From an uncultured Lentisphaerales bacterium (GTDB lineage Bacteria; Verrucomicrobiota; Lentisphaeria; JABSQK01; JAJFLO01): a stretch of 64,000 nucleotides of DNA. The DNA is taken from NCBI GenBank assembly GCA_964615975.1, contig CAZTTH010000008.1, forward strand, positions 13,814 to 77,813. Direction: 5' to 3'. A model generated the notes under the pieces. It was given only the letters and a program-made list of their open reading frames with translations. It did no database searches and was not told the origin of the DNA. The first letter of the stretch is position 1; each line of letters begins with the position of its first letter. Made by a program: the position numbers and the translations under genes. Of this stretch, positions 2,758 through 20,500 are shown one piece after another.

Positions 2758-3088
2758 AACAACTTTCAGGGATATGAAAATTTTATTAATCCGGTAGTAG
2801 AGTCAGACATATGATCCCAGACTGAACTGACACCGTGGTTAAAATTCTTCCCCGAATTCCTCGCCCCTGATCGCTGAATTGCCAGTGATCGGCCATGCGC
2901 CCGGATTTGCCAAGGTGATCGAATTTAAGCCCGAATCCAGGTACTCAAAAAGTCCAACCGCGTTACTCAGATGGAGAATCCTTAGGTAAAGTGATTGAAA
3001 ACATCATCAAGCTTGTTAATTTTACCCCCTTCATTGCGAAATTATAATACGACAATCAGGCGATAAAACAGGATTGAATTATCAACTT

Positions 3089-3640
3089 ATGAAACGTCTA
3101 CTATCAGCGCTTAAAGCCTTCTGGCACATCCTTTGCGGTCGCGAAGAGGCTCCCCCTGTCCCGGTTCAACCAGAGTCAGTAAAACCAGCAACTGCTCCGG
3201 CAACACCTGCAGCGGCGATTACCGCCGCATCCAAATCAGCTTCATCGGATAAACATACATTTCAACACGGCGCCATCTATGCCCTGGTGCTGTTGCAACG
3301 GCATGGCCGCCTGATTGATTTTCTTCAGGAAAAGCTGGACGACTACAGCGACGAACAAATCGGCACTGCCGTCCGTCAAATCCATCATGATTGCCAGGTG
3401 GTTTTCACCGAGAATTTTCACCTCCAGCGTATCCTGCCAGAGGAAGAAGGACAGCCCATAAAATTCGAAAAAGCTGTCGACCCTCTGGCAATCAAACTGA
3501 CTGGCGCCATCCCCGCCGCGCCTCCCTACCAGGGGGTGTTGCGTCACAAGGGATGGAAGATTGGTAAAATTCATTTGCCGGAACGGAGCGGGAAAATCGA
3601 TCCCCACATCATTGCCGCCGCGGAAGTGGAAATCGCTTGA
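3089..3640 (+). CDS. DUF2760-family protein (Hsp70-associated partner)
   Basis: ATG at 3089 (the track starts at a TTG at 3074). Contains a GRLIDFLQEKLDDYSDEQIG-type motif and sits immediately upstream of an Hsp70-family gene. Confidence 0.55.
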   Translation: MKRLLSALKAFWHILCGREEAPPVPVQPESVKPATAPATPAAAITAASKSASSDKHTFQHGAIYALVLLQRHGRLIDFLQEKLDDYSDEQIGTAVRQIHHDCQVVFTENFHLQRILPEEEGQPIKFEKAVDPLAIKLTGAIPAAPPYQGVLRHKGWKIGKIHLPERSGKIDPHIIAAAEVEIA

Positions 3641-3693
3641 ATCGTATCCCGGGATTAAAGGATGATGATGGTGGTATAACTCATAAATAAACC

Positions 3694-3790
3694 GTTGAAC
3701 TCATTAACCTGCGAACCTTATAACCTATTAACTCTTTAACCTCTTAACACTGAACCCCATTAACCTTTGAACCTTGAACTTTATTAATCC
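3694..3790. repeat. Degenerate tandem array (~12 units, 7-9 bp period) of (T/G)(T/A)AAC(C/T) motifs in the DUF2760-Hsp70 intergenic spacer
   Basis: Read directly: ..gttgaactcattaacctgcgaaccttataacctattaactctttaacctcttaacactgaaccccattaacctttgaaccttgaactttattaatcc.. Confidence 0.5.
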
Positions 3791-3799
3791 CATACCCCC

Positions 3800-5611
3800 A
3801 TGTCACGTTATATCATCGGCATCGATTTAGGCACAACCAATATCGCCATATCCTATCTGGATCTGGAATCCGACACGCCCACAGTGGAACTCTTTTCCGT
3901 CCCCCAACTGGTGGCGCCGGGAGAGATCGATGCGCTTCCACTGCTCCCCTCATTTCTCTATCTCCCGCCCGAGGCGGATGTGGAACGCGGCATTTATGAT
4001 CTGCCGTGGGCAGAGAAACCCCAACATTGTGTTGGCACGTTGGCGCGCAAGAACGGGCCGCTGGCGCCCGGGAAGGTGATTGCTTCGGCCAAATCCTGGC
4101 TGTGCACACCGACCGTCGATCGGCTGGCGCCGATTCTGCCGTGGGGTCAACCTGCGACGGCAGGCAAGATCTCCCCGATTGACGCGACCCGCTATTATCT
4201 CGAGCATCTCAAAGGCGCTTGGAACCAGCATTTTGCCATGGACGATTCCACCCTCGCATTTGAACAGCAAAAAATCATTGTCACCGTGCCCGCCTCCTTC
4301 GATGCCGTGGCCCGGGAATTGACGGTCAAGGCGGCGGAACTGGCAGGATTGACAATTAATTTGCTTGAAGAACCACAGGCGGCGTTTTACGCCTGGCTGC
4401 ATGAGCATGAGAAGAATTGGCGCAAGATGGTGGCGATCGGCAAGCGCATACTGGTCTGCGATATCGGCGGCGGCACCACCGATTTCAGCTTGATTCAGGC
4501 GGTTGACGATAACGGCAGTGTCGGCCTTGAGCGGGTCGCGGTCGGCAATCACATCCTGCTAGGTGGGGACAACCTGGACCTGGCGCTGGCAGTCTATCTT
4601 TCCGAAAAACTCAAACGCGACAAGGGGATCAAGCTCGATCTCAATCAGTTCACCGCCATGACCCATTCCTGCCGAGAAGCCAAGGAGAAGCTGTTCTCGA
4701 GCGCTAAACCGAAACCGCAGAAAATCACCGTGCTGGGACGCGGCAGCAGTGTCATCGGCGGCACGATCACCACGGAACTTACCTTGGAGGAATTGACCAC
4801 GGTGGTGCTGGAGGGATTTTTCCCCCCCTGCGAGCTAAGTGACCAACCGACAACACAAAAGCGACTGGGATTACGCGAATTCGGCTTGAATTACGAGTCC
4901 GATCCGGTGATAACCAAGCATTTGGCGGCGTTTCTTTCCCGGCACTCAGACACGGCGGGGGCCGCCGGCCTGCCAGAGATGATCCTCTTCAACGGCGGCG
5001 TCACCAAAGCCGACAGCATCTGCCAGCGCATCATCGACAACCTGAGAAAATGGCATGGCAACTCTGAAGCCTCGGAAATCACCGTTCTCACCGGCACGGA
5101 TCCCGACACGGCCGTGGCGATCGGCGCCTGCTGGTATGGTCATGTCAGTATTGGCAAAGGCATTCGCATCAAGGCCGGCAGCGCGTTCTCCTATTATGTC
5201 GGGGTGGAATCATCACAACCGGCAATACCCGGATTTCAACCGCCATTGCAGGGACTGTGCGTAGCGCCATTTGGCCTCGAAGAAGGCAGCACTGTCGATA
5301 TTCCCTACACCGGCCTGGGCCTGGTGGTTGGTGAACGCACCGACTTCCAGTTCTTCGCCAGCACTGATCACAAGGAAGATCAATGCGGTACGATCATCGC
5401 CGATGTCGAAGAAGCCGGACTGCACACCCTGCCGGTGCTGACCGCCGAACTGCCGGCGGATGAAGCCACCATCCCTGCCGGCACCCTCCTGCCTATCCGC
5501 CTCAAGACCGTGCTCACCGAAATCGGCACTCTGCAGCTCTGGTGCCTGGAAGAAAACGGCGACCGCCAGTGGCAGCTCGAATACGAACTCCGCGCCCGCG
5601 ACGCGGATTAG
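3800..5611 (+). CDS. Hsp70-family (DnaK-like actin-fold ATPase) protein, noncanonical
   Basis: IGIDLGTTNIAISY, DIGGGTTDFSL and NGGVTK motifs. Its 603-aa length and divergent C-terminal substrate domain argue against housekeeping DnaK. Confidence 0.8.
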   Translation: MSRYIIGIDLGTTNIAISYLDLESDTPTVELFSVPQLVAPGEIDALPLLPSFLYLPPEADVERGIYDLPWAEKPQHCVGTLARKNGPLAPGKVIASAKSWLCTPTVDRLAPILPWGQPATAGKISPIDATRYYLEHLKGAWNQHFAMDDSTLAFEQQKIIVTVPASFDAVARELTVKAAELAGLTINLLEEPQAAFYAWLHEHEKNWRKMVAIGKRILVCDIGGGTTDFSLIQAVDDNGSVGLERVAVGNHILLGGDNLDLALAVYLSEKLKRDKGIKLDLNQFTAMTHSCREAKEKLFSSAKPKPQKITVLGRGSSVIGGTITTELTLEELTTVVLEGFFPPCELSDQPTTQKRLGLREFGLNYESDPVITKHLAAFLSRHSDTAGAAGLPEMILFNGGVTKADSICQRIIDNLRKWHGNSEASEITVLTGTDPDTAVAIGACWYGHVSIGKGIRIKAGSAFSYYVGVESSQPAIPGFQPPLQGLCVAPFGLEEGSTVDIPYTGLGLVVGERTDFQFFASTDHKEDQCGTIIADVEEAGLHTLPVLTAELPADEATIPAGTLLPIRLKTVLTEIGTLQLWCLEENGDRQWQLEYELRARDAD

Positions 5612-5789: not shown

Positions 5790-7862
5790 TTAAGCTCGTA
5801 AGTCATCCAGGAATTCTGAGGCTGGTTCAATGCCTGTGACCAGTAAATGATCCCTTGCCCGTGTACAAGCGACATAAAGCAAGTGACGTTCAGTGTCGTA
5901 GACCTCTTGCAAATCGGCATCGTCACCGACTGTTTCAATACGTTCCTGTAAGGGGATAATCTCGTCATCACAGGATATCACGGCCACGGCGCGGAATTCA
6001 AGCCCCTTGGCCAGGTGCATGGTGCAGATCGATACATGACCACTGCTCGTCTCGACATGGTCATCGAGGATATTGAATGGCAAACCCGACTCCTTGACTG
6101 CATCTTGAGCTCGTTCCAGTTGCCCTGGTGAACGCACGAAGACGCCGAATTCATGGGGTAGGAGACCGGCTTTCGTGAGCTCGGCAATCCATGTACCAAC
6201 AGAACTTATTTCGTCATTTTCACTCTTGAACACGCGAATGTCGGGTAATGGACCATTGAAGATCGAAATTGTATCGCTCCGATCTTCTCGATTGCCGTCC
6301 ACATCAGTAACTTCCGGACCAAGCAGACGATCAGCTTGCTGGCGGATTTGATGGGATGTGCGATAATTGATTCGCAGCGTGCGGGAACGACCGCGGATAT
6401 CAACACCGAGTGATTTCCAGGAGAAGGGTTGTTGGAAAATACGCTGACCAAGATCACCGGCAAAGAATAAAGCGTTGGAGCGCTCACCACCAAGCACGGC
6501 AAGGAAGCGGAGTTGTGAAACACTGAGATCCTGTGCCTCGTCAACAACTACAAAATCGAAGGGTAGCTTTTTGCTTTCCACCAATGTGGACGACAAGGCA
6601 GTGAAAATCCCCGCATGAGTGGATAACTTCCGCTCTTTCAATCCACTGCTGACCTGCTCAAAGATAGACCAGAGTACCACTCGTCGCTTTTCGGGCAGCC
6701 GGGTTTTGCGGCCAAGGCGGGCTACATCGCGGTAAGACTCCCATGTTTCCAATTGCCACGCATCGACGACTTGTTCCCATTCGGTAACCAGGAAATGCAG
6801 ACTGAACTTGTGATCTCCCACCACTTTCGCCGCGACATTGAGCAATTCCCGCACGATATCACGAGTGGCCAGGTTCACCTTGCCACATTGTGATTTAAAG
6901 AGTCGGAGACCGATGGCATTCAGGGAGTAAACTTCAATGCGTTCGACAAGACGCGGTTCGTTGCCGACCAATCGTTTTAGCTTGGTACGAAGCGCATTTG
7001 CCAGCGTGTCGGAAAAGGTTGTGAGCAGGATGCGGGCATCGGGATAGGCGCGGGCCAGATACACTGCCCGATGCAACGCCACAATCGTCTTTCCGGTTCC
7101 AGCCGATCCTGAAACACGGGATGGTCCATTTTGGTCGCGTTCCACCCATTGACGCTGTTCGGGATGGAGAAAAACAGTCCACTTCTCCCAGGGGAAATCG
7201 AGAGCACATTGAAGCTCTTCGATATTGTTCATCACCCGGAAGCGGCGTTGCGCATCGGGGTGATCAAACGGACTTGCAATCGGCATGGCCGGTTGAATCA
7301 CTCGCGGTTTGCCACCGGTGGCAAGTTCCAGGAGCGCTTCAGCCGCTTCCCCGGGCAGACGTTCCGCTAACAATAACAGGCTGTCTTCATTAACCTGGCG
7401 CACATCATTCAACCATTCTGCCGGCACGCCATAGCCAAGCAGTTCTTCATCGGAATTGGCGGTAAACAGGGGTGGTTTCGGTAGCGCCGGCAATTCCTGT
7501 TGCACATACACTGGTACATAGACCTCCTTCACCGTCTCGCGAATTTCCACGAGCTGAGCCGCCCCCGTCTTGGGATGCGTTTCCAGTTTCCGGCGTTGCG
7601 CCCAATTATAGGCTTTATCGTGGTGATCGACATAACAGAGCATCAAACTGGTACCGGTTTTGTGAACGATGAGCCGAATATCACTGGTTGCTCGAATCGA
7701 CCAGAAGTTGGCATCTTTGGCGCCCTCAATACGATGGCATTGCATCCCGGGATTGAGGGGATTCATCTGCAGGTCAAATGCCGTTGTCTTGACCGCTTTC
7801 TGCTCATCGCCGGTCAGGCGTGCAAGGCTATCGGTGAAGGTGGCGGCAATGCGGAAGTTCAT
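5790..7862 (-). CDS. UvrD-like SF1 helicase (Walker A GSAGTGKT, DEAQD) with an N-terminal ~90-aa RelE/ParE-like fold
   Basis: Helicase motifs were read from the translation. The N-terminal segment ..ANFWSIRATSDIRLIVHKTG.SLMLCYVDHHDKAY matches the RelE/ParE C-terminal pattern. Confidence 0.75.
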   Translation of the reverse strand: MNFRIAATFTDSLARLTGDEQKAVKTTAFDLQMNPLNPGMQCHRIEGAKDANFWSIRATSDIRLIVHKTGTSLMLCYVDHHDKAYNWAQRRKLETHPKTGAAQLVEIRETVKEVYVPVYVQQELPALPKPPLFTANSDEELLGYGVPAEWLNDVRQVNEDSLLLLAERLPGEAAEALLELATGGKPRVIQPAMPIASPFDHPDAQRRFRVMNNIEELQCALDFPWEKWTVFLHPEQRQWVERDQNGPSRVSGSAGTGKTIVALHRAVYLARAYPDARILLTTFSDTLANALRTKLKRLVGNEPRLVERIEVYSLNAIGLRLFKSQCGKVNLATRDIVRELLNVAAKVVGDHKFSLHFLVTEWEQVVDAWQLETWESYRDVARLGRKTRLPEKRRVVLWSIFEQVSSGLKERKLSTHAGIFTALSSTLVESKKLPFDFVVVDEAQDLSVSQLRFLAVLGGERSNALFFAGDLGQRIFQQPFSWKSLGVDIRGRSRTLRINYRTSHQIRQQADRLLGPEVTDVDGNREDRSDTISIFNGPLPDIRVFKSENDEISSVGTWIAELTKAGLLPHEFGVFVRSPGQLERAQDAVKESGLPFNILDDHVETSSGHVSICTMHLAKGLEFRAVAVISCDDEIIPLQERIETVGDDADLQEVYDTERHLLYVACTRARDHLLVTGIEPASEFLDDLRA
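7767..7862. repeat. Direct repeat copy 1: start codon plus first 32 codons of the helicase gene
   Basis: Matches 10030-10125 with 12 mismatches in 96 nt by hand alignment. Confidence 0.7.
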
Positions 7863-7932: not shown

Positions 7933-8361
7933 TCATTTAGCATAATGGCATTCCATAACAGTATCGGCGATCAGTTGTGCTATAGTCAGATTATCTTGAT
8001 GAGAAATCCCATGAATTCCGCTATGAGACGGATCATTGTCTTCAGGTTCATGAATGAACTGCAACTGACGCGAATCATTCGATTCATTTTTTACAAAATT
8101 CCTGGTGTTTCCAACATTCACCACTGCAAACATACCCGTTGATGCCACATTGAATTTTTTAGCAAAAATTCGTCTTACTTCTTCAATTTCTTGAACACGA
8201 GAAGTTTTCTTGAGATATTCCAGCCAATTCACGGACAGATAAGTTTCATCATCTCGAAGCATGAATGAGGCACCGGTTGGTAGTCCAGTGGAAGGTGAAA
8301 GACTCCGAGGTTTACAATATCTTGAAACGTGATCGGAATCCTGGATAATGTCATTTCTCAT
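7933..8361 (-). CDS. Hypothetical protein, 142 aa (cassette gene C)
   Basis: ATG start. It overlaps the upstream gene by 11 nt. No recognisable domain. Confidence 0.5.
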   Translation of the reverse strand: MRNDIIQDSDHVSRYCKPRSLSPSTGLPTGASFMLRDDETYLSVNWLEYLKKTSRVQEIEEVRRIFAKKFNVASTGMFAVVNVGNTRNFVKNESNDSRQLQFIHEPEDNDPSHSGIHGISHQDNLTIAQLIADTVMECHYAK

Positions 8362-9067
8362 TGATCGTCGTCCATCGTTCTGTATTGAAGGGCGTTATGA
8401 GTTGACGAAAATCTTTCATGCCACATTTTCCTGAATTCCTAATTATTCCGTCCTGAGACGGAGAAAATATCAAATAATTAAGGTTATAATCCGAAAGAAA
8501 CTCAATGGTCAGATTTCGGGATTTATCTTTGCGCCATTGACAGATAATTGTCCCATTAGGGGATGCCATAATGTCAGGATGACAAAGGTCTTTATTCTGG
8601 GATAAAAATCGCAAGCAAGCGCCGACAGATGTTGCACTTAATTTCGTTTCCTCTAGATCTTCGGCGAGAAGGTCATTCAATTCTGTAATGCGAGCCAGCA
8701 CTTCATCTTTCTTTAACAGTGTTCGGCTTGAAAGGCGAAAGTCTATTAATGTTGCTCGAACTTTGTCATATTCTGACCTTATATCTCCTAAAATAGCCAT
8801 GGAAGTATTTTCCGAGGATTCGATTTCAGCTATGATTGCTTTGTCCTCTGGGCAAACACTCAAATAGATCATGGGTGTAAAATAATTCCGCGGTTTGATA
8901 GATGAGAACGAGGTTTTGGGGTTGAGAGATGATTCCCACTGGGCAAGAATTGAATAATCCGTTTGTCTTCGAGATAACAACAATGATTGTACTTGATATT
9001 CATCTTGATCGAATAGTGCTTCGCGGGTTAAGTCAAAATCATCCTTGTATGCGACTGCGGCAGTCAT
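8351..9067 (-). CDS. Hypothetical protein, 238 aa (cassette gene B)
   Basis: ATG start. It has an ATGA overlap with gene A, which implies translational coupling. No recognisable domain. Confidence 0.55.
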   Translation of the reverse strand: MTAAVAYKDDFDLTREALFDQDEYQVQSLLLSRRQTDYSILAQWESSLNPKTSFSSIKPRNYFTPMIYLSVCPEDKAIIAEIESSENTSMAILGDIRSEYDKVRATLIDFRLSSRTLLKKDEVLARITELNDLLAEDLEETKLSATSVGACLRFLSQNKDLCHPDIMASPNGTIICQWRKDKSRNLTIEFLSDYNLNYLIFSPSQDGIIRNSGKCGMKDFRQLITPFNTERWTTINEK

Positions 9068-9858
9068 TTATCCTTCCTCCCCCAGAATTTTTTTTGGATA
9101 TTAATATCAGTAAAATCGCAAAATCCATAAACAATCCATTCATGCGCCAGGTCAAACCACTCCTCCATACGCTTATAACTGACGTCTCCACCCAAACCTT
9201 TAGCTGATAATTCGAGAATGTAAATAGGACTACCGTCCGTTTGTCTTTGACTAAAGCTCAAGCTTACCGTCAGTCGTCCAAAATCTTCAGGTAATGTAAA
9301 GATACCTCTCCATGCGTTTGATTCTGGTCCCGGCAGGAATCGGTCTTCATTTCGCCAAATCAAATCGGGGGCGAAATTTCCAACTTCTGCCGGCGTTTGC
9401 CATATGTCACCTATAGGTATGTGGTTGATGTAAGACAGTTCGCATTTCTGAATGTTGGGCTTGGGTATTTCTTGTTCGGAGAGAAAGGTACAAAATTCCT
9501 TAAGTTGATTCCAAAATTCGTTAATGACATTGGAATATCGCGGATAGGTTTCGTCACCTGTGATCCGCCGCCAATTAAACACGAAACAATTTCTCTGAAT
9601 TTGGATCAGCGATGTTTGGGTTGAGTTCAATAACCAAACACGCGGCCATGGCAGATCGTTCTCTGGGTCTAATGGTAAAAGTGGTTGTGCATGTTCACAA
9701 TGGGGATATCGCTCCTGAATTCTATCCCAATAACGTCCAATATGAGGAAGTTTGAATCCCGCCAATGATTTAAAATAAACACCAGCCACCACCTCATTGA
9801 TAGGCGGAGTTTCAAAATCCGGTAATTGTGTTTGTATGTCTTTTTTGTTTTTCTTCAT
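9064..9858 (-). CDS. Hypothetical protein, 264 aa (cassette gene A); its N-terminal motif resembles the uncharacterized TIGR04255 family (from memory)
   Basis: ATG preceded by an aaggataaatca SD. N-terminus reads LPDFETPPINEVVAGVYFKSL. Confidence 0.5.
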   Translation of the reverse strand: MKKNKKDIQTQLPDFETPPINEVVAGVYFKSLAGFKLPHIGRYWDRIQERYPHCEHAQPLLPLDPENDLPWPRVWLLNSTQTSLIQIQRNCFVFNWRRITGDETYPRYSNVINEFWNQLKEFCTFLSEQEIPKPNIQKCELSYINHIPIGDIWQTPAEVGNFAPDLIWRNEDRFLPGPESNAWRGIFTLPEDFGRLTVSLSFSQRQTDGSPIYILELSAKGLGGDVSYKRMEEWFDLAHEWIVYGFCDFTDINIQKKFWGRKDK

Positions 9859-9971
9859 TGATTTATCCTTATGTTTTTGGGTCTAACCAATTTCATATAT
9901 AACATTAACAAAATTAAGATAGACAATTCAATCCGTCTGAGGTCTGTATTTTACCCACACTGACCAAAATC

Positions 9972-10125
9972 ACCTGTCCTTTGCCCTGTCGAGTTTATAG
10001 AAGATCAGTGCCAATCTTGCCAGGTTAACCTGCAAATCAAATGCTGTCGTCTGAACTGCTTTCTGCTCATCGCCAGTCAGGCGTGCAAGGCTATCGGTGA
10101 AGGTGGCGGCGATACGGAATTCCAT
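9972..10125 (-). pseudogene. Relic 5' fragment of a helicase homolog (ATG + 32 conserved codons, then divergent, stop after 50 codons)
   Basis: Translation MEFRIAATFTDSLARLTGDEQKAVQTTAFDLQ then VNLARLALIFYKLDRAKDR*. It differs from the intact helicase N-terminus at only 2 of 32 residues. Confidence 0.55.
10030..10125. repeat. Direct repeat copy 2 of the helicase 5' end
   Basis: See 7767-7862. Confidence 0.7.
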
Positions 10126-10242: not shown

Positions 10243-11898
10243 CTAAATAAGATGCCATTTCGGGTATTTTCGCGATCCTTCATTCCGGATTAAGTCCTCC
10301 CTTGCCATCGACTGAATCAGGTTAGTTACTTTGTTACGTTTCCGATCATCATCCAGGACATCAGATAATTTGCTGAATAAGAGCTTATCGATATCCTGGC
10401 GTGTGGCATGGCCATACTTCCGAATGAATTCCAGAATCATCTGCTTGTAATGTGCATCGTCGAAAGCGCGGTTTTTTATATACTGTGCTTTATCTCCAGT
10501 GGCCGAGGCGATATGCGCTGCCACGTATAGATTGGGATAACGGCCTTCAATAAGTTTATCATTTCGTAGCATATTCGCTTCATCTTTGGATACTGCTTGT
10601 CGTTTCTGAATTCGGTCTAATAAAATCACTTTGCTCAGCGGCAAATCTTTCTGATCCATAAGCATGACGGTGTAATTAGGGTCAATCACCTGGCCATGTA
10701 TGGTTACGATTACTTTACCCGGTGTCGATAGATTGAAATCGGGTAACGGATAAAATCGCTTGCGTTGCTCCTGGAACATCCGTCGAATGCCATATCCCAT
10801 GGTATCGATCATATTCACATTCACCATGGCGTCTGCGAGAAAACGATTACGATAGCGCTCTGGGGTCTTTTCCCGCAACGTATAATCCTCAAGCCCACCT
10901 TCGAAAAAATCTCCCGCACTCTCAAATACCAAACGATCAGGTCGCTCCGCGACAATTATCCGCGCTTGCTGGCGGTAATCCTGATGGGCAATCGCATTAT
11001 GCATTGCTTCCAGTACCACCCATTTTTCATACTTGGGGACTTCAAATGGAACCAGTTGACCGGGGACATCAAGCTTTTGCATGGTATTACGAATCCGGGC
11101 ATAACATTCACTGGTAGTCAGGAGAAATGGCGGACTGAAGTGTTCGTATGCCTGTTCCGTTCCTTCCAGTTTCCAGGTGATTTGCGCTACTGCCGGTTCC
11201 AGATGATAAGCCGCTTCTTCTCGCCCCAGCAACAGCAGACATGCACGGGTAATCGCGCCGTTCTTTGTCAATTTGGCTTTATCCAGCAATGTCGTATTCG
11301 ACCATGAATCAATCTCTCCGGCAAAGTACTTGTTTCGATTTTTATCACGAAAGTTCCGCCGAGCCGCCACGATTGCCTCCGAATTCAAGTCGTCAATAGT
11401 GGCTTGTGAACAGATTTCTGCTGACCAATCATCAAGCACTGCTTGTGACCGAATCTGCTCCAACTCATGAAGACTTAAGGCGACCAGCGACTCCCCATCG
11501 CGACCATACCAATGCCCTTTGAAGGAGACCGGCAACCCGGGCGGCGCCGCGGGAACCTGAAACATAATGACCCGGCCAGCGGCATGATACGCAATGTGAA
11601 TATCGATAAAACTCATGCGATTGGTTTGATTGGCAATTTCATGTTTAAGGCTATTCAAATAGTCTGCTTTGTCGCGATAACGACTCCCACAAATGCTCCG
11701 ATCATCATTGGCGATGCCGAACACCAGCCAGCCACAGGGTTGATGCTTGAGGTTTGCTTCATTCGCCAACGCTGAAAAATATTGCCCCAGTTTATCGAAG
11801 GAGAAATCATTTTTCGCTTCTTTGAACTCCACCCATTCCGTTTCATGGGGAAGCTGTCGTAGTTCATCAAGTTTATCAAGTAATTGCTGATTCGTCAT
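10243..11898 (-). CDS. AlbA_2 (Schlafen-like) DNA-binding + HATPase_c_4 ATP-binding protein of the RM-associated 'RecG-like C-terminal' type
   Basis: 551 aa with a typical N-terminus (LPHETEWVEFKEAK). Its ATG overlaps the mod stop as ATGA. Confidence 0.6.
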   Translation of the reverse strand: MTNQQLLDKLDELRQLPHETEWVEFKEAKNDFSFDKLGQYFSALANEANLKHQPCGWLVFGIANDDRSICGSRYRDKADYLNSLKHEIANQTNRMSFIDIHIAYHAAGRVIMFQVPAAPPGLPVSFKGHWYGRDGESLVALSLHELEQIRSQAVLDDWSAEICSQATIDDLNSEAIVAARRNFRDKNRNKYFAGEIDSWSNTTLLDKAKLTKNGAITRACLLLLGREEAAYHLEPAVAQITWKLEGTEQAYEHFSPPFLLTTSECYARIRNTMQKLDVPGQLVPFEVPKYEKWVVLEAMHNAIAHQDYRQQARIIVAERPDRLVFESAGDFFEGGLEDYTLREKTPERYRNRFLADAMVNVNMIDTMGYGIRRMFQEQRKRFYPLPDFNLSTPGKVIVTIHGQVIDPNYTVMLMDQKDLPLSKVILLDRIQKRQAVSKDEANMLRNDKLIEGRYPNLYVAAHIASATGDKAQYIKNRAFDDAHYKQMILEFIRKYGHATRQDIDKLLFSKLSDVLDDDRKRNKVTNLIQSMAREDLIRNEGSRKYPKWHLI

Positions 11899-14800
11899 GG
11901 GTTCACCCGGAATACCTTCATTACCTCGTCTCCAAGATGGTTGATTACTTTGATGGCGATGCGGCCGGACTTCGGCTTCTCGAATGGGCGGGAGGTGTCA
12001 CTGTTCAGAGTGGCCCAGGCGTCGGCGTTGATCTCGGCTTTGAGAGTGGTCTTGAGGGCGCTGTAGGGATCGTTGGCGCCAAGGAAATATGCATGGCGGA
12101 CAAAGAAGCTTTCTTCATTGTAATCGGTGTCGATGAACCAGCAGGCAATGCCATCGGTATTGCAGCTTTCTACTTCACCGGTTTGGGGTTTGAAGACATC
12201 CACTCCATTTACAGTGACCTGGAAATAGTGGCGAGTGGTCAGGGGAGAGTGGATAGCGATTTGATCAATGCGTTTAGCATTTTGTTGATCTTGGCACAAT
12301 TGTTCAATAAGTTTTCGCAGTCCTTCCTGGAAAGAAGTTCCAGCCTTTCGGACAAGATCAGAAAGGTTTCCAACTCCGCCAGCGATCCCCGCGCAATGCC
12401 AAGCGATTGTAGAAACTCCCCCGTGCTCCTGCGGGCCTGCCCTTCGGCGATGTTTGCCGGGACGGAGGTCACTGCCCGTCGCATTTGTGATGTAATCCCA
12501 TATCTCTCGGCGGCAGGAAAGCTGCGCGTAATCGCGTAGGTCTGCACCGCCAAGTCGATTGATTTCTGCCAGACTATTAACTCCCGATATGAGCTTATAG
12601 ATTTCATAAGGTGCTATTCTCCTTTCTGAACTATCCACTAACCACTCTTCACTTGCCACTTCAATATCAGGTTCCCCGAATATCACAAACAAGTTGCCTT
12701 TGCCGGTGTTCTTGAGATCTTCAGCCATGTGGAGGTCGGCGTTCATGCGGGCTTTGAGCACTGGGATGCGGCCCAGCTTCTTGAATTCGGTGGTGTGCGC
12801 TTCGTAGTTAAAAGCGCAGACGATCAAGACATCAAACCCGGCATCGCCGGCTTCGCGGGCGGCGGCGACGAGATCGGCGCGCTGGACGGTGCCGAACTCG
12901 GGGCCGATGAAGATTCCAGCACGGATTTCCGTGCCGGAATCAGTGGATAGTGAGGAGTGGTTAATGGCATATTTTTCTTGTTGATCACCCTTCACTAACC
13001 ACTCACCACTTGCTTCAAACCGCCCTTCGGCGCAGACCAATTCGCCCGGCCAGGGAACCAACGAGGTGAAAGTGATCCGATCCTCCTTGTGCGCCTGCTG
13101 CACCCCTGCGGTCTTGAGGTTTTCCAGAACCATCTGGGGGAATGACTGCTTTCCATATTCGACACCGCCTTCCAACATGGTGTCGATCAATTCGTCGTCC
13201 TCGTCGACCCCGAGCACACGATGAGGTGAAAGACTCTCCACGGTGAAGGGACCGGCGACGCGGACTGTCTTCTTGTCCTCATAGGGTTTGTCGTAGAGAT
13301 ATTCGACATCAGCCTTGGCGGAAATCGACGCATCAATTTCCTTTTGGCGGGCAATTCGTTTGTGCCACCAGTCGGAATGCAGCTTCAGAATGTGGGACAG
13401 ACATTCTTGTCTGTCTTTAGGGGGGAGTTTGGCGGTGGAAGAAGCAGACAGGAATGTCTGCTCCACACTGGCAGATTCGCGCGGAATTTCCCATTCTTCC
13501 CATTTCATATTAAGCGCGGTATTGAGCTCTGCTCGAAGAAATTCCAGCTCTGGTTGGAATTTCTCCCAGATAACATCGATCTCGGCGTTGTTGGCGATGG
13601 ACTTGAGCGTGATGTGTGGCACACGTTCATAGACGAAGCCGTGGCGGATGTTCCCCTGCACCGGTTGCGAACTTGGGGCGGTGCGAGTGACTTCGGCTTC
13701 CTTGAGCTGACCTTCAATGGAATCGACTAGTAGGTAAAAGGGATACCGTGCGCCCATGATGCGAGCACGGGCCAATGCCAGCGCCACGCGTGAGGTGTCG
13801 ATCGTGATCCAACGGCGCCCCCATTGCTCGGCGACGGTGGCGGTGGTACCAGAACCGCAGGTCGGGTCAAGTACGAGGTCACCGGGATCGGTGGCCAAGA
13901 GAAGGCATCGTTTTATTGCTTCTGTAGCAGTCTGAACGACAAAAATCTTTGGATCTGCACGGCTTTGAATGCCCCCGATATCATCCCAGACGTTTGAAAG
14001 TGTATGAACGGGAAAATCTTCAATGTAGCGAACGTAATTTAATATCTGCTTGCTCGGAGAAATACGATTTGCCAATTCGAGTCTGGCCATGCCATTGGGT
14101 GTTGTCTTCCAACTGCCTTGGTGTTCGCAGTTTCGTAGTGTCACTAACACTACTGGGTTTGCTTCTGACGTTGTCTTGTCGAGACGGAAAATTCGTGACG
14201 CGGGCGGGAAGGCATCAGGGAATTTTTCACTCGCTTGTTTTAGTGTAATTCTTGTTCCATCTGGTAGTTCGACTCCGTTGTATTTTGTGCCGCCATGTTC
14301 TCCTGGTCTCTTCTCGGCGTACAGATGCCGTGCTTTCGCATGGGTCTTATGCTTTGCGAACCAGAGAATGAAATCGCATTTGTTATTCACGAAGTCTTGA
14401 ACAAGACCTCCTGTCTTTACGAATGTGATTTGGCTGACACAATTCTCTTCTCCGAAGACCTCATCCATCACTGCCCGGACACGGTGAACATTTTCATCGC
14501 CGATCTGGACGAAGATGGAGCCGGAATCTGTTAACAAGTCACGGGCCACTGTCAACCGGTCCCGCAGGTAGGTAAGGTAGCTATGGATGCCTTCGCGCCA
14601 GGTATCGCGAAAGGCTTTAACTTGTTCGGGTTCACGTGTAATATGATCAACCTTGCCGTCCTTCACATCACGGCTGGTGGTGGACCACTGGAAATTGCTA
14701 TTGAACTTGATGCCATAAGGCGGATCGATATAGATGCACTGCACCTTGCCGCGCAACCCCTCGCGCTCGGCCAGGCTGGCCATGACCTGGAGGGAGTCGC

Positions 14801-15215
14801 CGAGGATCATGCGGTTGGACCAATTCTGATCGTGTTGATAGAACTCAGTCTTGTCCACGCCCTGAGGAATGCCATTAAAATCCGCGAATAAGTCTGGCTG
14901 CCACGATTCGGTGGAGTGATTAGTGGATAGTGAAGAGTGGCGCAGTAGATCGTCAATCAATACCTTGGGGTGAATTTTCTCCTGAATGTATAACGGCGGG
15001 GCATGGACAACGAGATCGCTCCAGTCCTGTTCATCCTTGCCGCGCCAAACGAGTTGGGGATCGAGATCGGTGTTGCGGGGATAACGCACCTGCTTGGGGT
15101 TCTGCTGCTCCTTCTCCAGCACCGACTGGTATTCGGCGGTGGGAATGTTCTTGCGCGTCGCGTCGTCGTGCTTGAGTGTTTCGACTGTCTTGGTTTTATT
15201 GTTTGCATTGGCCAT
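11895..15215 (-). CDS. mod: Type III-like N6-adenine DNA methyltransferase (Mod), long form (~1100 aa); ORF stays open across a nested four-helix-bundle gene
   Basis: Motif IV DPPYG precedes motif I DPTCGSGTT (beta-class order). The C-terminus ..GRIAIKVINHLGDEVMKVFRVNP matches the family. I prefer the ATG at 15215 (MANANNK) over the track's TTG at 15230. Confidence 0.7.
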   Translation of the reverse strand: MANANNKTKTVETLKHDDATRKNIPTAEYQSVLEKEQQNPKQVRYPRNTDLDPQLVWRGKDEQDWSDLVVHAPPLYIQEKIHPKVLIDDLLRHSSLSTNHSTESWQPDLFADFNGIPQGVDKTEFYQHDQNWSNRMILGDSLQVMASLAEREGLRGKVQCIYIDPPYGIKFNSNFQWSTTSRDVKDGKVDHITREPEQVKAFRDTWREGIHSYLTYLRDRLTVARDLLTDSGSIFVQIGDENVHRVRAVMDEVFGEENCVSQITFVKTGGLVQDFVNNKCDFILWFAKHKTHAKARHLYAEKRPGEHGGTKYNGVELPDGTRITLKQASEKFPDAFPPASRIFRLDKTTSEANPVVLVTLRNCEHQGSWKTTPNGMARLELANRISPSKQILNYVRYIEDFPVHTLSNVWDDIGGIQSRADPKIFVVQTATEAIKRCLLLATDPGDLVLDPTCGSGTTATVAEQWGRRWITIDTSRVALALARARIMGARYPFYLLVDSIEGQLKEAEVTRTAPSSQPVQGNIRHGFVYERVPHITLKSIANNAEIDVIWEKFQPELEFLRAELNTALNMKWEEWEIPRESASVEQTFLSASSTAKLPPKDRQECLSHILKLHSDWWHKRIARQKEIDASISAKADVEYLYDKPYEDKKTVRVAGPFTVESLSPHRVLGVDEDDELIDTMLEGGVEYGKQSFPQMVLENLKTAGVQQAHKEDRITFTSLVPWPGELVCAEGRFEASGEWLVKGDQQEKYAINHSSLSTDSGTEIRAGIFIGPEFGTVQRADLVAAAREAGDAGFDVLIVCAFNYEAHTTEFKKLGRIPVLKARMNADLHMAEDLKNTGKGNLFVIFGEPDIEVASEEWLVDSSERRIAPYEIYKLISGVNSLAEINRLGGADLRDYAQLSCRREIWDYITNATGSDLRPGKHRRRAGPQEHGGVSTIAWHCAGIAGGVGNLSDLVRKAGTSFQEGLRKLIEQLCQDQQNAKRIDQIAIHSPLTTRHYFQVTVNGVDVFKPQTGEVESCNTDGIACWFIDTDYNEESFFVRHAYFLGANDPYSALKTTLKAEINADAWATLNSDTSRPFEKPKSGRIAIKVINHLGDEVMKVFRVNP
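12239..12607 (-). CDS. Four-helix-bundle protein (TIGR02436 / '23S rRNA intervening-sequence protein' family), nested inside the mod ORF in a different frame
   Basis: ELIVWQKSIDLA..FP..ERYGITSQMRRAVTSVPANIAEGQARRSTGEFLQSLGIARGSLAELETFLILS.. is an unmistakable family signature. It has its own SD (aaaggag). Confidence 0.75.
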   Translation of the reverse strand: MKSISSYRELIVWQKSIDLAVQTYAITRSFPAAERYGITSQMRRAVTSVPANIAEGQARRSTGEFLQSLGIARGSLAELETFLILSERLELLSRKDCENLLNNCAKINKMLNALIKSLSTLP

Positions 15216-15376
15216 GTTATTAAATCCCAAAATCAGGTTGTTGTCTACATTTATTCGGCCCGCTAATCACGCAAAACACACGAATGTTCAGTTCTCAGTT
15301 AAGAATGAAGGCTGATTTGCTTGGATTGAATATTCGTGTCGTTCGTCTGATTCGTGGTTAAATTTGAACGGTGGTG

Positions 15377-15473: not shown

Positions 15474-15707
15474 TTATATTTTGCCATCGCGTTTCAATTC
15501 GATAATCATGTCCTCAAACGAAACTAATGGTTCATCCGCGCGCATATCGAAGGCGGCTAAATCCTCTGTATCCTCCGCCAGCGACAATATTACCGCTTCA
15601 TTAACGAGGTCGGACATCGATCTTGATGTATCAATGGACTTTTGCTGTAATGCTTTATGAATATCCGGTTTTAGGTAAATAGTGGAACGTTTTGATAATA
15701 CTGTCAT
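15474..15707 (-). CDS. Ribbon-helix-helix (CopG/antitoxin-like) DNA-binding protein, 77 aa
   Basis: TIYLKPDIHKALQQKSIDTSRSMSDLVNEAV is an RHH-like beta-alpha-alpha N-terminus. No adjacent toxin ORF. Confidence 0.45.
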   Translation of the reverse strand: MTVLSKRSTIYLKPDIHKALQQKSIDTSRSMSDLVNEAVILSLAEDTEDLAAFDMRADEPLVSFEDMIIELKRDGKI

Positions 15708-15777
15708 ATGATAACCTCCATGATTTTATTGATTGAACAATTATAACGTTACATTACCAATCGTGGAATGAAAAATT

Positions 15778-16350
15778 TCAAACTGCCAATCGGTCAGTGA
15801 CTACATCATCGATCATCTTGTTGAACTCGGCTTCAACCTTTTTAGTAAAATCCGCCTCGATCTGATAAACCATGCGTTCGCTCGCCCGGATTTCGCAGAC
15901 CTCTTCAAGCAGTTCCTCGAAGTATCGCCGGTCGAAACGAGTGCCGTGTTTAAAGCGGTCGGAATCGATAGCGAAACCTTTGAGGATGTAGTCCTTTAAC
16001 CGATCGGTAGCCCAGGTACGAAATTGGGTCGCTCGCACGCTTTTGACGCGATACCCAACAGCTATGATCGCTTCGAGGCTGTAAAGCTTCGTACGATACT
16101 GCTTGCCATCAGCGGCAGTTACCGAGGATTCCTCGGTAACTGCTGATTCGATTAGTTCTTGATCGGCGAAAATATTCTTTAAATGCAAGGAGATATTGTC
16201 GGTGGAACACTCATAAAGTTCGGCTATGAGTTTCTGGGTGAGCCAAACATTTTCGTTCTCGAAGCGAACTTCAACGCGAGCCCGCCCATCTTCACTTGCG
16301 AAGATGGTGATATTGTCGATGCGTATAGGTTGCGAATTTTTAGACATCAT
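15778..16350 (-). CDS. RhuM-family virulence-associated protein
   Basis: NISLHLKNIF..YSLEAIIAVGYRVKSVRATQFRTWAT block. Overlaps the fic stop by 1 nt. Confidence 0.6.
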   Translation of the reverse strand: MMSKNSQPIRIDNITIFASEDGRARVEVRFENENVWLTQKLIAELYECSTDNISLHLKNIFADQELIESAVTEESSVTAADGKQYRTKLYSLEAIIAVGYRVKSVRATQFRTWATDRLKDYILKGFAIDSDRFKHGTRFDRRYFEELLEEVCEIRASERMVYQIEADFTKKVEAEFNKMIDDVVTDRLAV

Positions 16351-17435
16351 TAACTTCCTTCCTGCATGGATTCTCTGGTCAAAATAGCATTCAAGGCGGT
16401 GTTAATGTAGTAATTAGTCCGCCCTATTTTTTGTTTTTTAAGGAAGCCGCCGCCGGTCAACGCATCGAGATATTTGGTGGCGGTGAGGCGCGACACCTTC
16501 AGATCACGTTCGACGAATTCGATCTTGGTATAGGGGTGGGTAAACAGGTTATTGATCAGATCCTGACTGTAAAACTTGTACTCCGCGCGAATACGGTGCT
16601 TCGCATCCATCAACGCCGCATTAATGGCATGGATGGTTTCGATGGCATCACCGGCGGTTGATTCAATGGCGGTAAGCAGGTAAAGCACCCACTCTTCCCA
16701 TGCATCGTTTTCGCGAACACTCTGAAGCAGTCGATAATAATCCGGTTTGGTGCGGACGATGTGGCGGCTGAGATATAGCACCGGGATATCGAGCAGACCT
16801 TCCTTCACCAAGTAAAGCACATTAACGATGCGGCCGGTGCGGCCATTGCCATCATAGAACGGGTGGATACTTTCAAACTGGTGATGGATCAACGCCATTT
16901 TAATGAGCGGGTCAGCGGCAAATAAATCACGATCATTGATGAAACGCTCAAGATCGCGCATGAGCGCGATAATGGTATCTGGATCTTGCGGCGGCATATA
17001 GATCGCCTGACCAGAGCCATCTTTCAACACAGTCCCTGGCAGTTTGCGGAAACCGGCGTTGTTTTGCTCCAGCTCTACCTGAATCTGAATGATATGGTTG
17101 ATGGTAAGCAGACCACTTTGTTGCACTAGATCGAATCCAACCCGTAAAGCCTGGCGATACCGTAGTACCTCCTTGGCGGCGCCATGGTGCAAGTTCTCGG
17201 GAAAAAGGTCATCTTTATATAATTCGTCATGAGTGGTCACGATGTTTTCTATGGCCGAACTATCCTTGGCCTCCTGTATTCCCAGAGTGTTGATGAGTAT
17301 CCCCTGGTTAGGAATGGAGGCGGCGACTCCCTTGAGTTCAGCTAGTTTACGACTTGTTAAAGCCAATTTTTTAAGGATAACGGGAGTATCGAATCTTATC
17401 GACGGCAAACGATCTAATGGCAGAATGGTGGTCAT
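16350..17435 (-). CDS. Fic/Doc family protein (AMPylation-type; motif HPFYDGNGRTGR) with a C-terminal wHTH-like region
   Basis: Canonical Fic motif HPFxDGNGRxxR was read in the translation. Confidence 0.85.
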   Translation of the reverse strand: MTTILPLDRLPSIRFDTPVILKKLALTSRKLAELKGVAASIPNQGILINTLGIQEAKDSSAIENIVTTHDELYKDDLFPENLHHGAAKEVLRYRQALRVGFDLVQQSGLLTINHIIQIQVELEQNNAGFRKLPGTVLKDGSGQAIYMPPQDPDTIIALMRDLERFINDRDLFAADPLIKMALIHHQFESIHPFYDGNGRTGRIVNVLYLVKEGLLDIPVLYLSRHIVRTKPDYYRLLQSVRENDAWEEWVLYLLTAIESTAGDAIETIHAINAALMDAKHRIRAEYKFYSQDLINNLFTHPYTKIEFVERDLKVSRLTATKYLDALTGGGFLKKQKIGRTNYYINTALNAILTRESMQEGS

Positions 17436-17537: not shown

Positions 17538-20500
17538 TCATAATGATGCCGGCCGCGGGTGTATTATCATGCTTAACATCCGATCAAATTCAAATTTAAC
17601 CTTCTTGGAAAAATCTGCCTCAATCTGATAAACATCATTGAACTCGGCGAATGCCCAGCGGCCAAACGTGCCCAGGTTGTTCACACCGGGTACCCAGTAG
17701 GTTTCGATGGCGGACTTCTTATCCTTGGCATCCTCGCGGCGGTAGCCTTTGATCTCAACAATCAGATGGAGGAGATCGTCGGGCCCGTGGCCGTCATCCA
17801 CGCGCACGATAAAGTCCGGCAGATACTTGCGGATTTCAGAACCATGGCGATAGGGCACTTCGAGGCCGAGGTTGTGATTTTTGACGTAGGCATGAACTTT
17901 AGGGTGCGACTCGGCGACCCGGCAGAACTCGGCTTCCCAATCGCTGTCGAGGATAACCCAGTTGATATGGCAACTCTTGGAACTGGTTTCCCAGCGGTCA
18001 CGGCGCGAGGTGTTAAAGCGAACATGGGCCGTGGAGCCCGTGGGATTATAAGGGTCGAGCAGGGCTTTGATGGGACGTTCTCCGACGAAGGCGCGGGTAA
18101 TACCGGCAGTAATGCGTTCGCAAGCTATATCAGCGAGCATTTTGTATTTTAACTGCGCGGGGTAAGTTCTACCCTTGCAAATCAAGCAAGTGTCCAGCCA
18201 ATGCTTGGCAATCCGTTTCAATTGTCCGAAAAGATTAAAATGGGCAGACTGCCCCGGGTCACGCCAATGATTCAGAACGAGATGGGAAGTCAATTCAAAA
18301 AGAATTTGTGATGGACGCACCTCTCTAGTATGATCGAGAGTCAGGTCGACAGTTTGTCCAATTATTCCAGACTGACGAGTCGTTGTTGCACCAACCAACT
18401 CCGGGGTAAGCTCAAGAATCGAGTCTTGGTCAAATTGGGCAATTAGACGATCATCGGGCAATTCAACACGATAGCCTGCCACACGGGGGAAAATTATCTC
18501 CAGATGATTTCTCTCTGGGCTAATGGCTTTCACTCGGACGGTTTGCGGGGGTGGTTGTGGGGGAGAGATTACGGGCTGGGCTGTAAAGTTAAAGGGAATG
18601 CCAATAATATCAGCATATTCTACATTGAACAATCCTTTATCCGATCCTTCCTCATTTAGCCAATAGGACCATCGCCTCAGAGCTCGGCCGATGACCTGTT
18701 CACATAGTAGCTGAGTACCAAAAGCCCGAACTCCAAGTACATGAGTGACAGTGTTGGCATCCCAGCCCTCGGTAAGCATGGAAACTGAAACAACACAACG
18801 AATGTCACTACCAAGTGTCCCAGGTTTGCCCACAGTGTTCATAACTTCCCGCAATAGGGTTGTATCGTCGAAATCTTTTCCTTCCCTCAATTGCTCCGCC
18901 AAGGGGCCGCCTCTTTCCATAACTTGACTCTTGAACTGAGTAATTTCAGGGGCTGCAACTGCTCGGAAGTTATCATCGAAACCTTCCCCCGATTCCAATT
19001 GAGCGCTGTCGATGAGCAATGTGTATGGGCGAGTTAATGGGTTGCCGTGCTCGTCATGATTTCGGAATAGTTCGAGACGTCCACCCACAGGCTTGAAGCT
19101 TCCATCCTCCTGCAGTTGATCAAAGCCAGAAATGAAATCGTAGATTAGCTTCGAAACGGCCGTGTTCTGACAAACAATGATAAAGCATGGCGGAACCGGG
19201 ATCCCTCTTTCTCGCCAACACTGAAAAGTTTTGGAATAGTGGCCATAGAGTGCTTCGAGTGCGGTTTGAAGTAAGGGGGGCAGGCTCAAAGGGTCAAGTC
19301 TAGACTGACCGCGCTTTTTCTTTGGCATTTTCGAGCGCACGTTCTCCCACAGATTTCTGAATAACGGAACGTCAGCTCCGGGTATGTTGTCCGAGACTGG
19401 AACCCGAGGCAATTTCACGATTCCGCACTCAATTGCGTCCATGAGTGAAAAATCGCTCATCGTCCAGTGGAACATCGTACCTTCTCGATATCCAGAGCCA
19501 CGGAGAAAGAAAGGTGTTGCAGAAAGATCGATTACACGAAGAAGACCGATTTTGCGATTCACTTTCTCAAGTCCCGAAATCCAAAGTCGTGCCGCCTTGT
19601 TGTTCTCCGCAGCTTCTTCCCTGGCTTCTCTCAGTGCGTTGCCAGAAAGAGGATTACCTTCTGAATCAGTGAACTGACTGTCGTCTGCAGGTTTCTCACG
19701 ATAACAGTGATGTGCCTCGTCATTTATAACAAGGATATTTTTCATGCCCATGAGTTCGGGCATGACACGTTGAATCATCTGGCCTTCGGTCTCAAGTGTT
19801 AGCGGATCATCACCGGTTCGGCCCTTGAGGAGTTGACGGTTGCCTTTTGAAAGATTGGTGCGCTCCCGGAGTTTGAAGGCATGGTAGTTGGTGATGACAA
19901 TCTTGGCCTTCTTGAGATCGTCGAGCATATCATGCGGCACGAGTTCGCGGCTAGCATAATAGCTGTCAGGATCGTGGGGTTGGAGGACGCGCAGACGATC
20001 CTTGATGGTCAGACCGGGGGCGACGATGAGGAACCCACGGCTGAAATATTTGCTGCCAGGGCGGCGGACAGCATTGATGGTTTGCCAGGCGATAAGCATG
20101 GCCATAACGGTGGTCTTGCCAGCGCCGGTGGCCAGTTTCAGGGCGAAGCGCATGAGTTCAGGATTGGCATCCTGATTAGCGCTTGCCAGGTAATCGAGCA
20201 ATTGTTTACTGCTCTTATAAAAGGGAGCGACTTCGGTCAGCCAGATGGCGGTTTCGACCGCTTCAATCTGACAGAAGAACGGGCGGAAGTCGCCGAATTT
20301 ATGGTGACGCCAGTGCTGCAGCAGGCGGGTTGTCTCGGGGCTAACCTGCCATTGGCCGGGATTGGACAACGCCCGCCAGGCATTCACATGGCGGCGAACT
20401 TCATTGATGTTGGACGTAGGATCGTATTGCTGATCCTTGGTCGAAAGCCCCTGGCCTTCGTCGAATACGAATTCTTCCTGAGCGGCGGATTGCTTCCGCT

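Follow-up and report, generated by a model that had tools for sequence, protein, structure and literature searches.

The gene at positions 5790 to 7862, on the minus strand of a 64,000-nucleotide stretch of DNA from an uncultured Lentisphaerales bacterium (the window; positions 13,814 to 77,813 of the forward strand of contig CAZTTH010000008.1, assembly GCA_964615975.1), encodes a protein in which a RelE/YoeB-type domain is followed by a UvrD-like helicase core of superfamily 1 (SF1). Sequence comparison identifies this protein as a homolog of ArmD, a component of the ARMADA type II defence system, and as a member of a new clade. The gene is the last one of an array that also holds the Res and Mod genes of a Type III-like restriction system. 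We consider it probable, at roughly 0.6, that the ArmD-like protein is an accessory motor/ribonuclease (RNase) effector of this restriction system, in a mobile, multi-phylum clade in which it is the terminal gene of the array. This reading builds on what is observed for the fold, the helicase motifs, the homology with ArmD, the synteny, the cargo slot of the arrays and the conservation of the RelE-like domain; the steps that go beyond fold, motifs and synteny we infer. The gene and the regions of its protein are the following.

5790 to 7862, minus strand: RelE-like/UvrD-like helicase gene (ArmD-like), complete, 690 residues, ATG start
7545 to 7862, minus strand: residues 1-106, predicted RelE/YoeB-type fold with a C-terminal β-hairpin (AlphaFold, Foldseek, hhalign)
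7170 to 7544, minus strand: residues 107-231, linker (full-length model; colinear with the ArmD ortholog)
5793 to 7169, minus strand: residues 232-690, helicase core of the SF1A UvrD/PcrA/Rep type (Pfam, PADLOC, Foldseek, phmmer against the PDB)

The open reading frame (ORF) is intact over its 690 codons, as proposed in an initial annotation made from the sequence alone, and a GAGGA-type ribosome-binding site lies immediately 5' of it. The guanine-plus-cytosine (GC) content of the gene is 0.52, and a scan for promoters and terminators around it gives sites that are no more numerous than in shuffled sequence. A gene-fusion artefact, caused by a frameshift or a misassembly, was considered and rejected, as at least 590 genomes carry the fusion in intact form.

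The AlphaFold model of residues 1-105 has a predicted local distance difference test (pLDDT) score of 92.8 and a β-α-α-β-β-β-β-α topology, with strands at residues 2-5, 42-44, 53-57, 62-68 and 72-80 and helices at residues 7-14, 18-33 and 81-89. When this model is compared with the PDB by Foldseek, the top 50 matches are all RelE, YoeB, YafQ, HigB or ParE toxins or proteins bearing this fold, such as Cami1, and the best match is RelE3 (3bpq_B; E = 3.4e-5, target-normalised template modelling score 0.74). The predicted structure settles that residues 1-106 have a fold of the RelE/ParE superfamily; the comparison could have pointed to an unrelated fold, and the RelE reading of the initial annotation survived it. 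When considering sequence profiles, the domain is nearer to YoeB than to E. coli RelE: the hhalign comparison with authentic E. coli YoeB has an E-value of 5e-5, with residues 51-81 placed without gaps onto residues 53-83 of YoeB, and the comparison with E. coli RelE is not significant (E = 0.68). The other sequence comparisons are consistent with this fold but below threshold. Among 42 diverse family members (59-76% identity), the Pfam model HigB-like_toxin is matched by 36 (best E = 3.9e-5) and ParE_like by 21 (best E = 9e-4), and the window N-terminus itself matches HigB-like_toxin with E = 0.04 and 14.7 bits, under the cut-off of 27. When the N-terminus is compared with PDB sequences, as a single sequence or as a profile, the matches are marginal; the family profile aligns end to end with RelE3 (3bpq_B), with E = 0.5.

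Conservation within the protein is highest in the RelE-like domain, which has a mean pairwise identity of 80%, compared with 67-70% for the helicase core. Within it, Ser55, Arg57, Arg63, His81, Asp82 and Tyr85 are conserved, and Ser55, Arg63, His81 and Tyr85 are invariant both in the clade with Res and Mod and in ArmD. These four residues align with Ser57, Arg65, His83 and Tyr84 of YoeB, of which the last three, together with Glu46, are active-site residues. A search with residues 1-105 gives 2333 representatives, and the 150 that were listed all belong to the same family, many of them as fragments. One protein of a related locus (P0178, L091:10001-11791, 596 residues) has about 105 RelE-like N-terminal residues, 72% identical to those of the window protein, that are joined to FG-GAP repeats and not to a helicase, and it adjoins several insertion sequence elements. 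This is probably a relic N-terminus joined by rearrangement, not a functional alternative fusion.

The helicase core exceeds the Pfam cut-offs for UvrD-helicase (70.9 bits, cut-off 23, residues 232-477), UvrD_C (65.6 bits), AAA_19 and UvrD_C_2. The motifs can be read directly in the translation: the Walker A motif is GSAGTGKT (Lys258), the Walker B motif is VVDEAQD (Asp441/Glu442), and the later helicase motifs NYRTS, MHLAKGLEF and YVACTRAR follow in order. Both results agree with the complete UvrD/AAA_19 core that had been noted initially. The PADLOC profiles of GajB (E = 3e-24) and of NERD+UvrD also match this region, and the closest solved structures, by Foldseek and by phmmer against the PDB, are those of UvrD (E = 3e-21 by Foldseek), PcrA and Rep. 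This proximity would fit a housekeeping UvrD/Rep paralog that functions in DNA repair and has an incidental N-terminal extension. Such an explanation is highly improbable, since the scores with the NCBIfam uvrD, rep and pcrA equivalogs are only 50-72 bits, against cut-offs of 911-1168, from which it follows that the protein is not a UvrD, Rep or PcrA housekeeping ortholog. The distribution of the gene is moreover patchy, with horizontal transfer and always in defence contexts, and at the DNA level it is missing from E. coli chromosomes, as blastn with the gene as query gives no match in complete E. coli genomes. Between the two domains, the linker is composed of a disordered segment (residues 110-136), a small helical bundle (residues 138-181) and a low-confidence segment (residues 185-230); it has no Pfam match and is conserved in ArmD too, as seen in the colinear alignment.

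The homology with ArmD extends over nearly the whole protein. Residues 9-676 align colinearly with residues 14-692 of the protein at the ArmD position of the E. coli plasmid NZ_AP027623.1 (32% identity, E = 4e-96). In this plasmid the gene order (a DEAD/DEAH helicase, a methyltransferase of 1638 residues, a DEAD/DEAH helicase of 2113 residues and, as the last one, the helicase of 704 residues) is the ARMADA II layout, and the 704-residue protein carries Lys266 and Asp454, with a numbering identical to that of published ArmD. When plasmids are searched at the protein level with residues 1-230, E. coli and Klebsiella genes annotated as 'ATP-dependent helicase' are also found, at about 29% identity, and relatives in Thermus and Nostoc (30-34% identity) are present in similar arrays. 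ArmD of ARMADA type II has been described as a RelE-like domain and a GajB-like helicase in one protein, with PDB entry 3BPQ as the HHpred match of the RelE-like domain (Bell et al., bioRxiv 2025, PMC12458937). Like ArmD (E. coli NCTC 12900 / EDL933 OI-172; WP_000218177.1), the window protein has about 700 residues, in which a RelE-like domain at the N-terminus is joined through a conserved linker to a UvrD/GajB-like helicase; the RelE3 structure is the top match of the N-terminal domain in both cases, and both genes are the last of a multi-helicase defence operon that contains a methyltransferase. The clade of the window protein is distinct, with 47-82% identity between its members and about 30% identity to ArmD. 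In the full-length search, which scored 8000 homologs, the best 120 all have about 690 residues and are 79-83% identical to the window protein.

The initial annotation had taken the fusion to be one not known from described defence helicases. This does not hold, as ArmD has the same architecture and as the automatic annotation of the Joint Genome Institute calls many relatives 'mRNA-degrading endonuclease RelE ... / superfamily I DNA/RNA helicase'. The fusion has thus been described before, and it is its context in a Res-Mod array that is apparently undescribed: neither a three-gene array of Res, Mod and helicase nor the name BPTD_3080 is found in the literature searched, a limited body in which this is an absence of evidence.

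The array of the window is encoded entirely on the minus strand, in the order Res; Fic, RhuM and a small ORF; Mod; a Schlafen/AlbA_2 gene; a relic; three cargo genes; and the helicase. Its features upstream of the helicase gene are the following.

17538 to 20654, minus strand: Res, restriction endonuclease of the BPTD_3080 family, 1038 residues (Pfam ResIII and C-terminal RE_endonuc; NCBIfam NF046055)
15474 to 17435, minus strand: cargo between Res and Mod, consisting of Fic (16350-17435), a RhuM-family gene (15778-16350) and an ORF of 77 residues (15474-15707)
11895 to 15230, minus strand: Mod, N6_N4 DNA methyltransferase, 1111 residues (PADLOC MTase_III, 1355 bits)
10243 to 11898, minus strand: cargo gene with Schlafen AlbA_2 and HATPase_c_4 domains, 551 residues (profile matches)
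9970 to 10125, minus strand: relic of the 5' end of a second helicase gene, ORF of 51 codons (10025-10125 compared with 7762-7862: 86% identity over 101 nucleotides)
7933 to 9858, minus strand: three co-oriented cargo genes between the relic and the helicase gene, of 264 (TIGR04255 family), 238 and 142 residues

Res scores 1319 bits with NF046055, the cut-off of which is 800. With a Res that has superfamily 2 helicase-like and endonuclease domains and with an adjacent N6/N4 Mod, the array has the make-up of a Type III system.

At least 590 relatives of the helicase are found in species-representative genomes. The best 80 of these are 68-81% identical to the window protein and come from Verrucomicrobiota, Pseudomonadota, Nitrospirota, Planctomycetota, Acidobacteriota, Chloroflexota, Bacillota, Elusimicrobiota and other phyla; such high identity across many phyla points to extensive horizontal transfer. 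The linkage was counted over the loci of these 80 relatives. Mod is located upstream on the same strand in 58 of the 63 loci with at least 2 kb of upstream sequence, and when considering only loci with at least 9 kb, Mod is present in 38 of 40 and Res in 37 of 40. The same order of Res, Mod and helicase is seen in all the metagenomic neighbourhoods examined and in the Pseudomonas amygdali plasmid pPae2250X (locus L093), where a hypothetical gene stands between Res and Mod and the array is free of cargo, as it is in L036 and L047; most of the plasmid copies of Res that are at least 50% identical to the window Res carry the helicase or are truncated by transposons. The search for orthologs and their neighbourhoods that the initial annotation had proposed thus finds the same fusion to be widespread, with Res and Mod upstream.

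It is possible to combine these data in a mechanism, in which the helicase core would act on DNA ends, or on stalled complexes, formed when Res-Mod meets unmethylated DNA, by analogy with ArmD and GajB. The template is GajB, which is activated by DNA ends generated by its partner nuclease GajA. Lacking a cognate antitoxin, the RelE-like domain would be kept inactive in cis until engagement of the motor, and the linker or the β-hairpin may mask its RelE face; it would then cleave or bind RNA, either ribosome-bound mRNA or nascent phage transcripts. This is in agreement with the properties of ARMADA, where deletion of armD or the Walker A mutation K266A abolishes defence (PMC12458937). No cognate antitoxin gene is found, nor any conserved small gene on either side of the helicase gene across the loci examined; Mod abuts the helicase gene within 100 bp in 14 of 66 loci, and these junctions leave no room for an antitoxin gene.

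Several observations weigh against this mechanism, and most of them concern the RelE-like domain. The matches with Pfam models of the RelE type are all below the gathering thresholds. Glu46 of YoeB is aligned with Gly39 and has no counterpart in the window protein. In the full-length model (pLDDT 80.6, predicted template modelling score 0.62), the geometry between the domains is uncertain. For ArmD, only Walker A and Walker B mutants have been made, and the RelE function there is a predicted one (PMC12458937); in the preprint on OI-172 of enterohaemorrhagic E. coli, armD contributes to defence and its deletion has the mildest phenotype (10.1101/2025.09.22.677730). ARMADA defence is also reported to be direct and non-abortive, which fits poorly with a growth-arresting RNase.

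The sub-threshold matches, the missing Glu46, the difference between the clades at position 43 (a histidine in the clade with Res and Mod, a glutamate in E. coli ArmD), the lack of an antitoxin gene and the non-abortive defence would all be accommodated if the RelE-like domain were a catalytically dead adaptor, which binds RNA or the ribosome, or docks onto Res or Mod, and thereby positions or regulates a helicase that alone acts, for example by unwinding cleaved foreign DNA or by displacing proteins from it. This is a possibility to be taken seriously, although the odds are against it, when considering that Arg63, His81 and Tyr85 are invariant across clades which share only about 32% identity, that no other part of the protein is as conserved as this domain, and that RelE-family toxins vary in their catalytic residues yet stay active (PMC11090510).

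Another set of observations concerns the cooperation of the helicase with Res-Mod. Distant Res copies, such as the one of Rhodococcus at 41% identity, are part of plain two-gene Res-Mod systems without the helicase. The helicase is therefore not required for restriction as such, and it is an addition specific to this clade rather than a subunit of the restriction core. In four degenerate arrays (L017, L050, L069 and L028), Res and/or Mod are internally deleted or fused and the helicase gene is full length, so that the helicase may act alone; residues 1-319 of Res are joined to the C-terminus of Mod in L017, and residues 1-224 of Res run into the start of the helicase in L050. These cases, the relics of the helicase 5' end at cargo boundaries and the attachment of the same type of protein to a quite different system, ARMADA, would also be expected if the helicase were an autonomous one-gene defence or guard module at the 3' border of the array, with a conserved 5' end that serves as a recombination anchor for cargo exchange and with no biochemical cooperation with Res-Mod. 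That explanation is unlikely, as the linkage with Mod is near-universal, as the junctions between Mod and helicase in the 14 loci, which overlap or are about 8 bp apart at most, imply co-transcription, and as ARMADA requires all four of its genes, ArmD alone being insufficient (PMC12458937).

A cis-neutralised addiction module of the toxin-antitoxin kind, in which the RelE toxin is masked by the linker and the helicase of its own polypeptide and stabilises a mobile array, would agree with the RelE-like fold, with the conserved residues resembling an active site, with the lack of a separate antitoxin and with the evident mobility of the array, as judged from the 68-81% identity across phyla and from its presence on plasmids. 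It is nevertheless very unlikely: a mechanism for the differential decay of a fused antitoxin is not evident, restriction-modification systems themselves give post-segregational killing, and nothing in the data supports it specifically. Our preferred reading is that of an accessory motor/RNase effector.

Between Mod and the helicase gene, 52 of the 66 loci have 0.3-7.9 kb of co-oriented genes. The cargo that was sampled includes GmrSD (in three loci), a reverse-transcriptase protein of 1412 residues, a DEAD helicase with SIR2, HerA, Hachiman (HamA/HamB), a Gabija-like pair of OLD and UvrD proteins (L007), AAA_15/21 ATPases, Mrr_cat, DUF2326, NOV_C and FRG. A cassette of three overlapping genes, encoding about 254, 182 and 145 residues and having no Pfam matches, recurs in this slot in at least six genomes with 54-66% identity (L031:8287-9978, L035, L044, L054, L058 and L066), and a distant version is found in L090:6703-8364; it is a candidate for an uncharacterised defence module. 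In the window, the three genes at 7933-9858 overlap or are adjacent and have a GC content of 0.40, compared with 0.52 for the helicase gene. The 238- and 142-residue genes have no family matches, and none of the three has a homolog in about 90 related loci. They may be another uncharacterised defence cassette.

The relic at 9970-10125 holds the same N-terminus as the helicase, as had been noted initially and as is borne out by the identity with the 5' end of the helicase gene. With regard to the protein, the initial annotation is confirmed for the structure and the relic and not for the novelty of the fusion, and the linkage to Res-Mod with a cargo slot had been overlooked. A similar duplication is seen on the other side of Mod, where the tail of the RhuM ORF (15832-15870) duplicates the 3' end of Res (17595-17633; 85% identity over 39 nucleotides), so that both cargo blocks of the window are bounded by the duplicated end of a conserved gene, the 5' end of the helicase and the 3' end of Res. 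The last 30 or so codons of RhuM (15778-15870, compared with 17538-17633) copy the 3' tail of Res, the similarity extending further at lower identity. Relic helicase N-termini are also present in L026 and L059, and in L059 two cargo blocks are separated by such a relic and, directly next to it, one of the Mod 3' end, as would be expected after a deletion between two tandem arrays. Judged from these sequences, the relic of the window is a recombination scar at a cargo boundary, and in the proposed mechanism it would have been left by recombination between two arrays that stacked their cargo.

The last 110 or so residues of Mod (11895-12230 of the window, minus strand) are 80-95% identical between loci, compared with about 65% for the rest of Mod. 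This conservation of the Mod C-terminus parallels that of the helicase 5' end across the slot, and it is consistent with both ends functioning as recombination anchors. Mod also carries an optional insertion of about 140 codons, which most Mod genes of the family do not have. An ORF of 122 residues (12239-12607, minus strand), which matches Pfam 23S_rRNA_IVP (8e-39; a four-helix bundle, bAvd-like), is nested wholly in the uninterrupted Mod ORF. Its frame is in every case +1 with respect to that of Mod. In the window and in five other, divergent loci (L012, L021, L058, L059 and L062) neither frame is interrupted, and the identity is higher in the IVP frame (55-76%) than in the Mod frame that it overlaps (32-67%). 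The ORF resembles either a conserved gene nested in another or a mobile insertion that keeps the reading frame of its host intact.

A broader proposal, which we put forward tentatively and with more doubt than confidence, is that the array of Res, Mod and RelE-helicase is an unrecognised multi-phylum defence platform. The ArmD-like protein would in that case be a general guard/effector add-on of methylation-based restriction systems that couples a DNA-sensing SF1 motor to a RelE-type RNase, as a second line resembling PrrC, and the Mod 3' and helicase 5' ends would form a docking slot for cassettes which are stacked by recombination between arrays, leaving relics. The clade shows that the occurrence of ArmD-like proteins is not confined to ARMADA. 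They recur, in hundreds of species, as the product of the terminal gene of a second, mechanistically different methylation-based restriction system, and this recurrence points to an accessory function that is portable and that is found here in a simpler array of three genes. The role of the RelE-like domain bears on whether such systems add the targeting of RNA to the restriction of DNA. The junction of Mod and helicase is a reliable marker of variable co-oriented defence cargo, of which many cassettes are unannotated, and it could be mined for new defence genes.

Two other features are seen on the plus strand on the other side of the helicase gene. A DUF2760 protein (188 residues, E = 2e-41) and a divergent Hsp70-like ATPase (603 residues) are encoded at 3074-5611, convergent with the helicase gene, and this pair looks unrelated to the array. 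At 2068-2600, a VapB-like antitoxin ORF (89 residues) precedes short ORFs that appear to be broken, at the place expected for a VapC/PIN toxin; this may be a decayed toxin-antitoxin pair.

When compared with known systems, the array is closest in its terminal gene to ARMADA II, and it differs from it in the partners. In ARMADA II these are ArmA (Snf2/BrxHII-like), ArmB (a PglX-like methyltransferase of about 1640 residues) and ArmC (a YprA-like helicase of about 2100 residues), whereas in the window they are the BPTD_3080 Res and the N6_N4 Mod, and the clade of the window protein, unlike ARMADA II, has a cargo slot directly upstream of the helicase gene. Membership of ARMADA II was rejected, as the partner genes are absent and as no ORF of the window is longer than 1111 residues, which leaves no ArmB- or ArmC-like gene. 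GajB of Gabija shares the UvrD-like SF1 core and the role of an accessory NTPase paired with a nuclease; it has no RelE-like domain at its N-terminus, and it is paired with the OLD/TOPRIM nuclease GajA. A GajA-like gene does not flank the helicase gene in the window, and the Gabija-like pair of L007 is seen only as cargo.

The RelE/YoeB type II toxins share with the N-terminal domain the fold, the topology and the counterparts of Arg65, His83 and Tyr84 of YoeB. They are stand-alone proteins of about 90 residues, whereas the domain of the window protein is fused to a linker and helicase of 580 residues and has neither an antitoxin gene nor Glu46. A RelE fold within a larger defence protein is also known from Cami1 (CARF-RelE) of type III CRISPR systems, which is among the Foldseek matches and in which the partner is a CARF sensor, and from the RTL domain of CnuH of the CoCoNuT systems (PMC11090510), where the RelE-like domain is beside a helicase as well; there it is internal, the helicase is UPF1-like and the restriction is of the McrBC type. 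In both, the RelE fold is a predicted or proven RNA-targeting effector (for CnuH: PMC11090510). The functional analogy for the proposed guard role is the anticodon nuclease PrrC, which resides in the EcoprrI type IC restriction locus and is coupled to the state of the restriction enzyme (PMC12707154). PrrC is likewise a translation-targeting RNase within a restriction-modification operon, but it has an unrelated fold (an ABC-ATPase and a HEPN-like nuclease), is associated with a Type I system and has no helicase. With classical Type III systems (EcoP15I-like Res2Mod2 / Res1Mod2), the window array shares a Res with ResIII helicase-like and C-terminal endonuclease domains and an N6_N4 Mod, encoded by adjacent, co-oriented genes. 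Whereas the classical systems consist of these two genes, the clade of the window array has a third conserved gene and allows cargo to lie between the genes.

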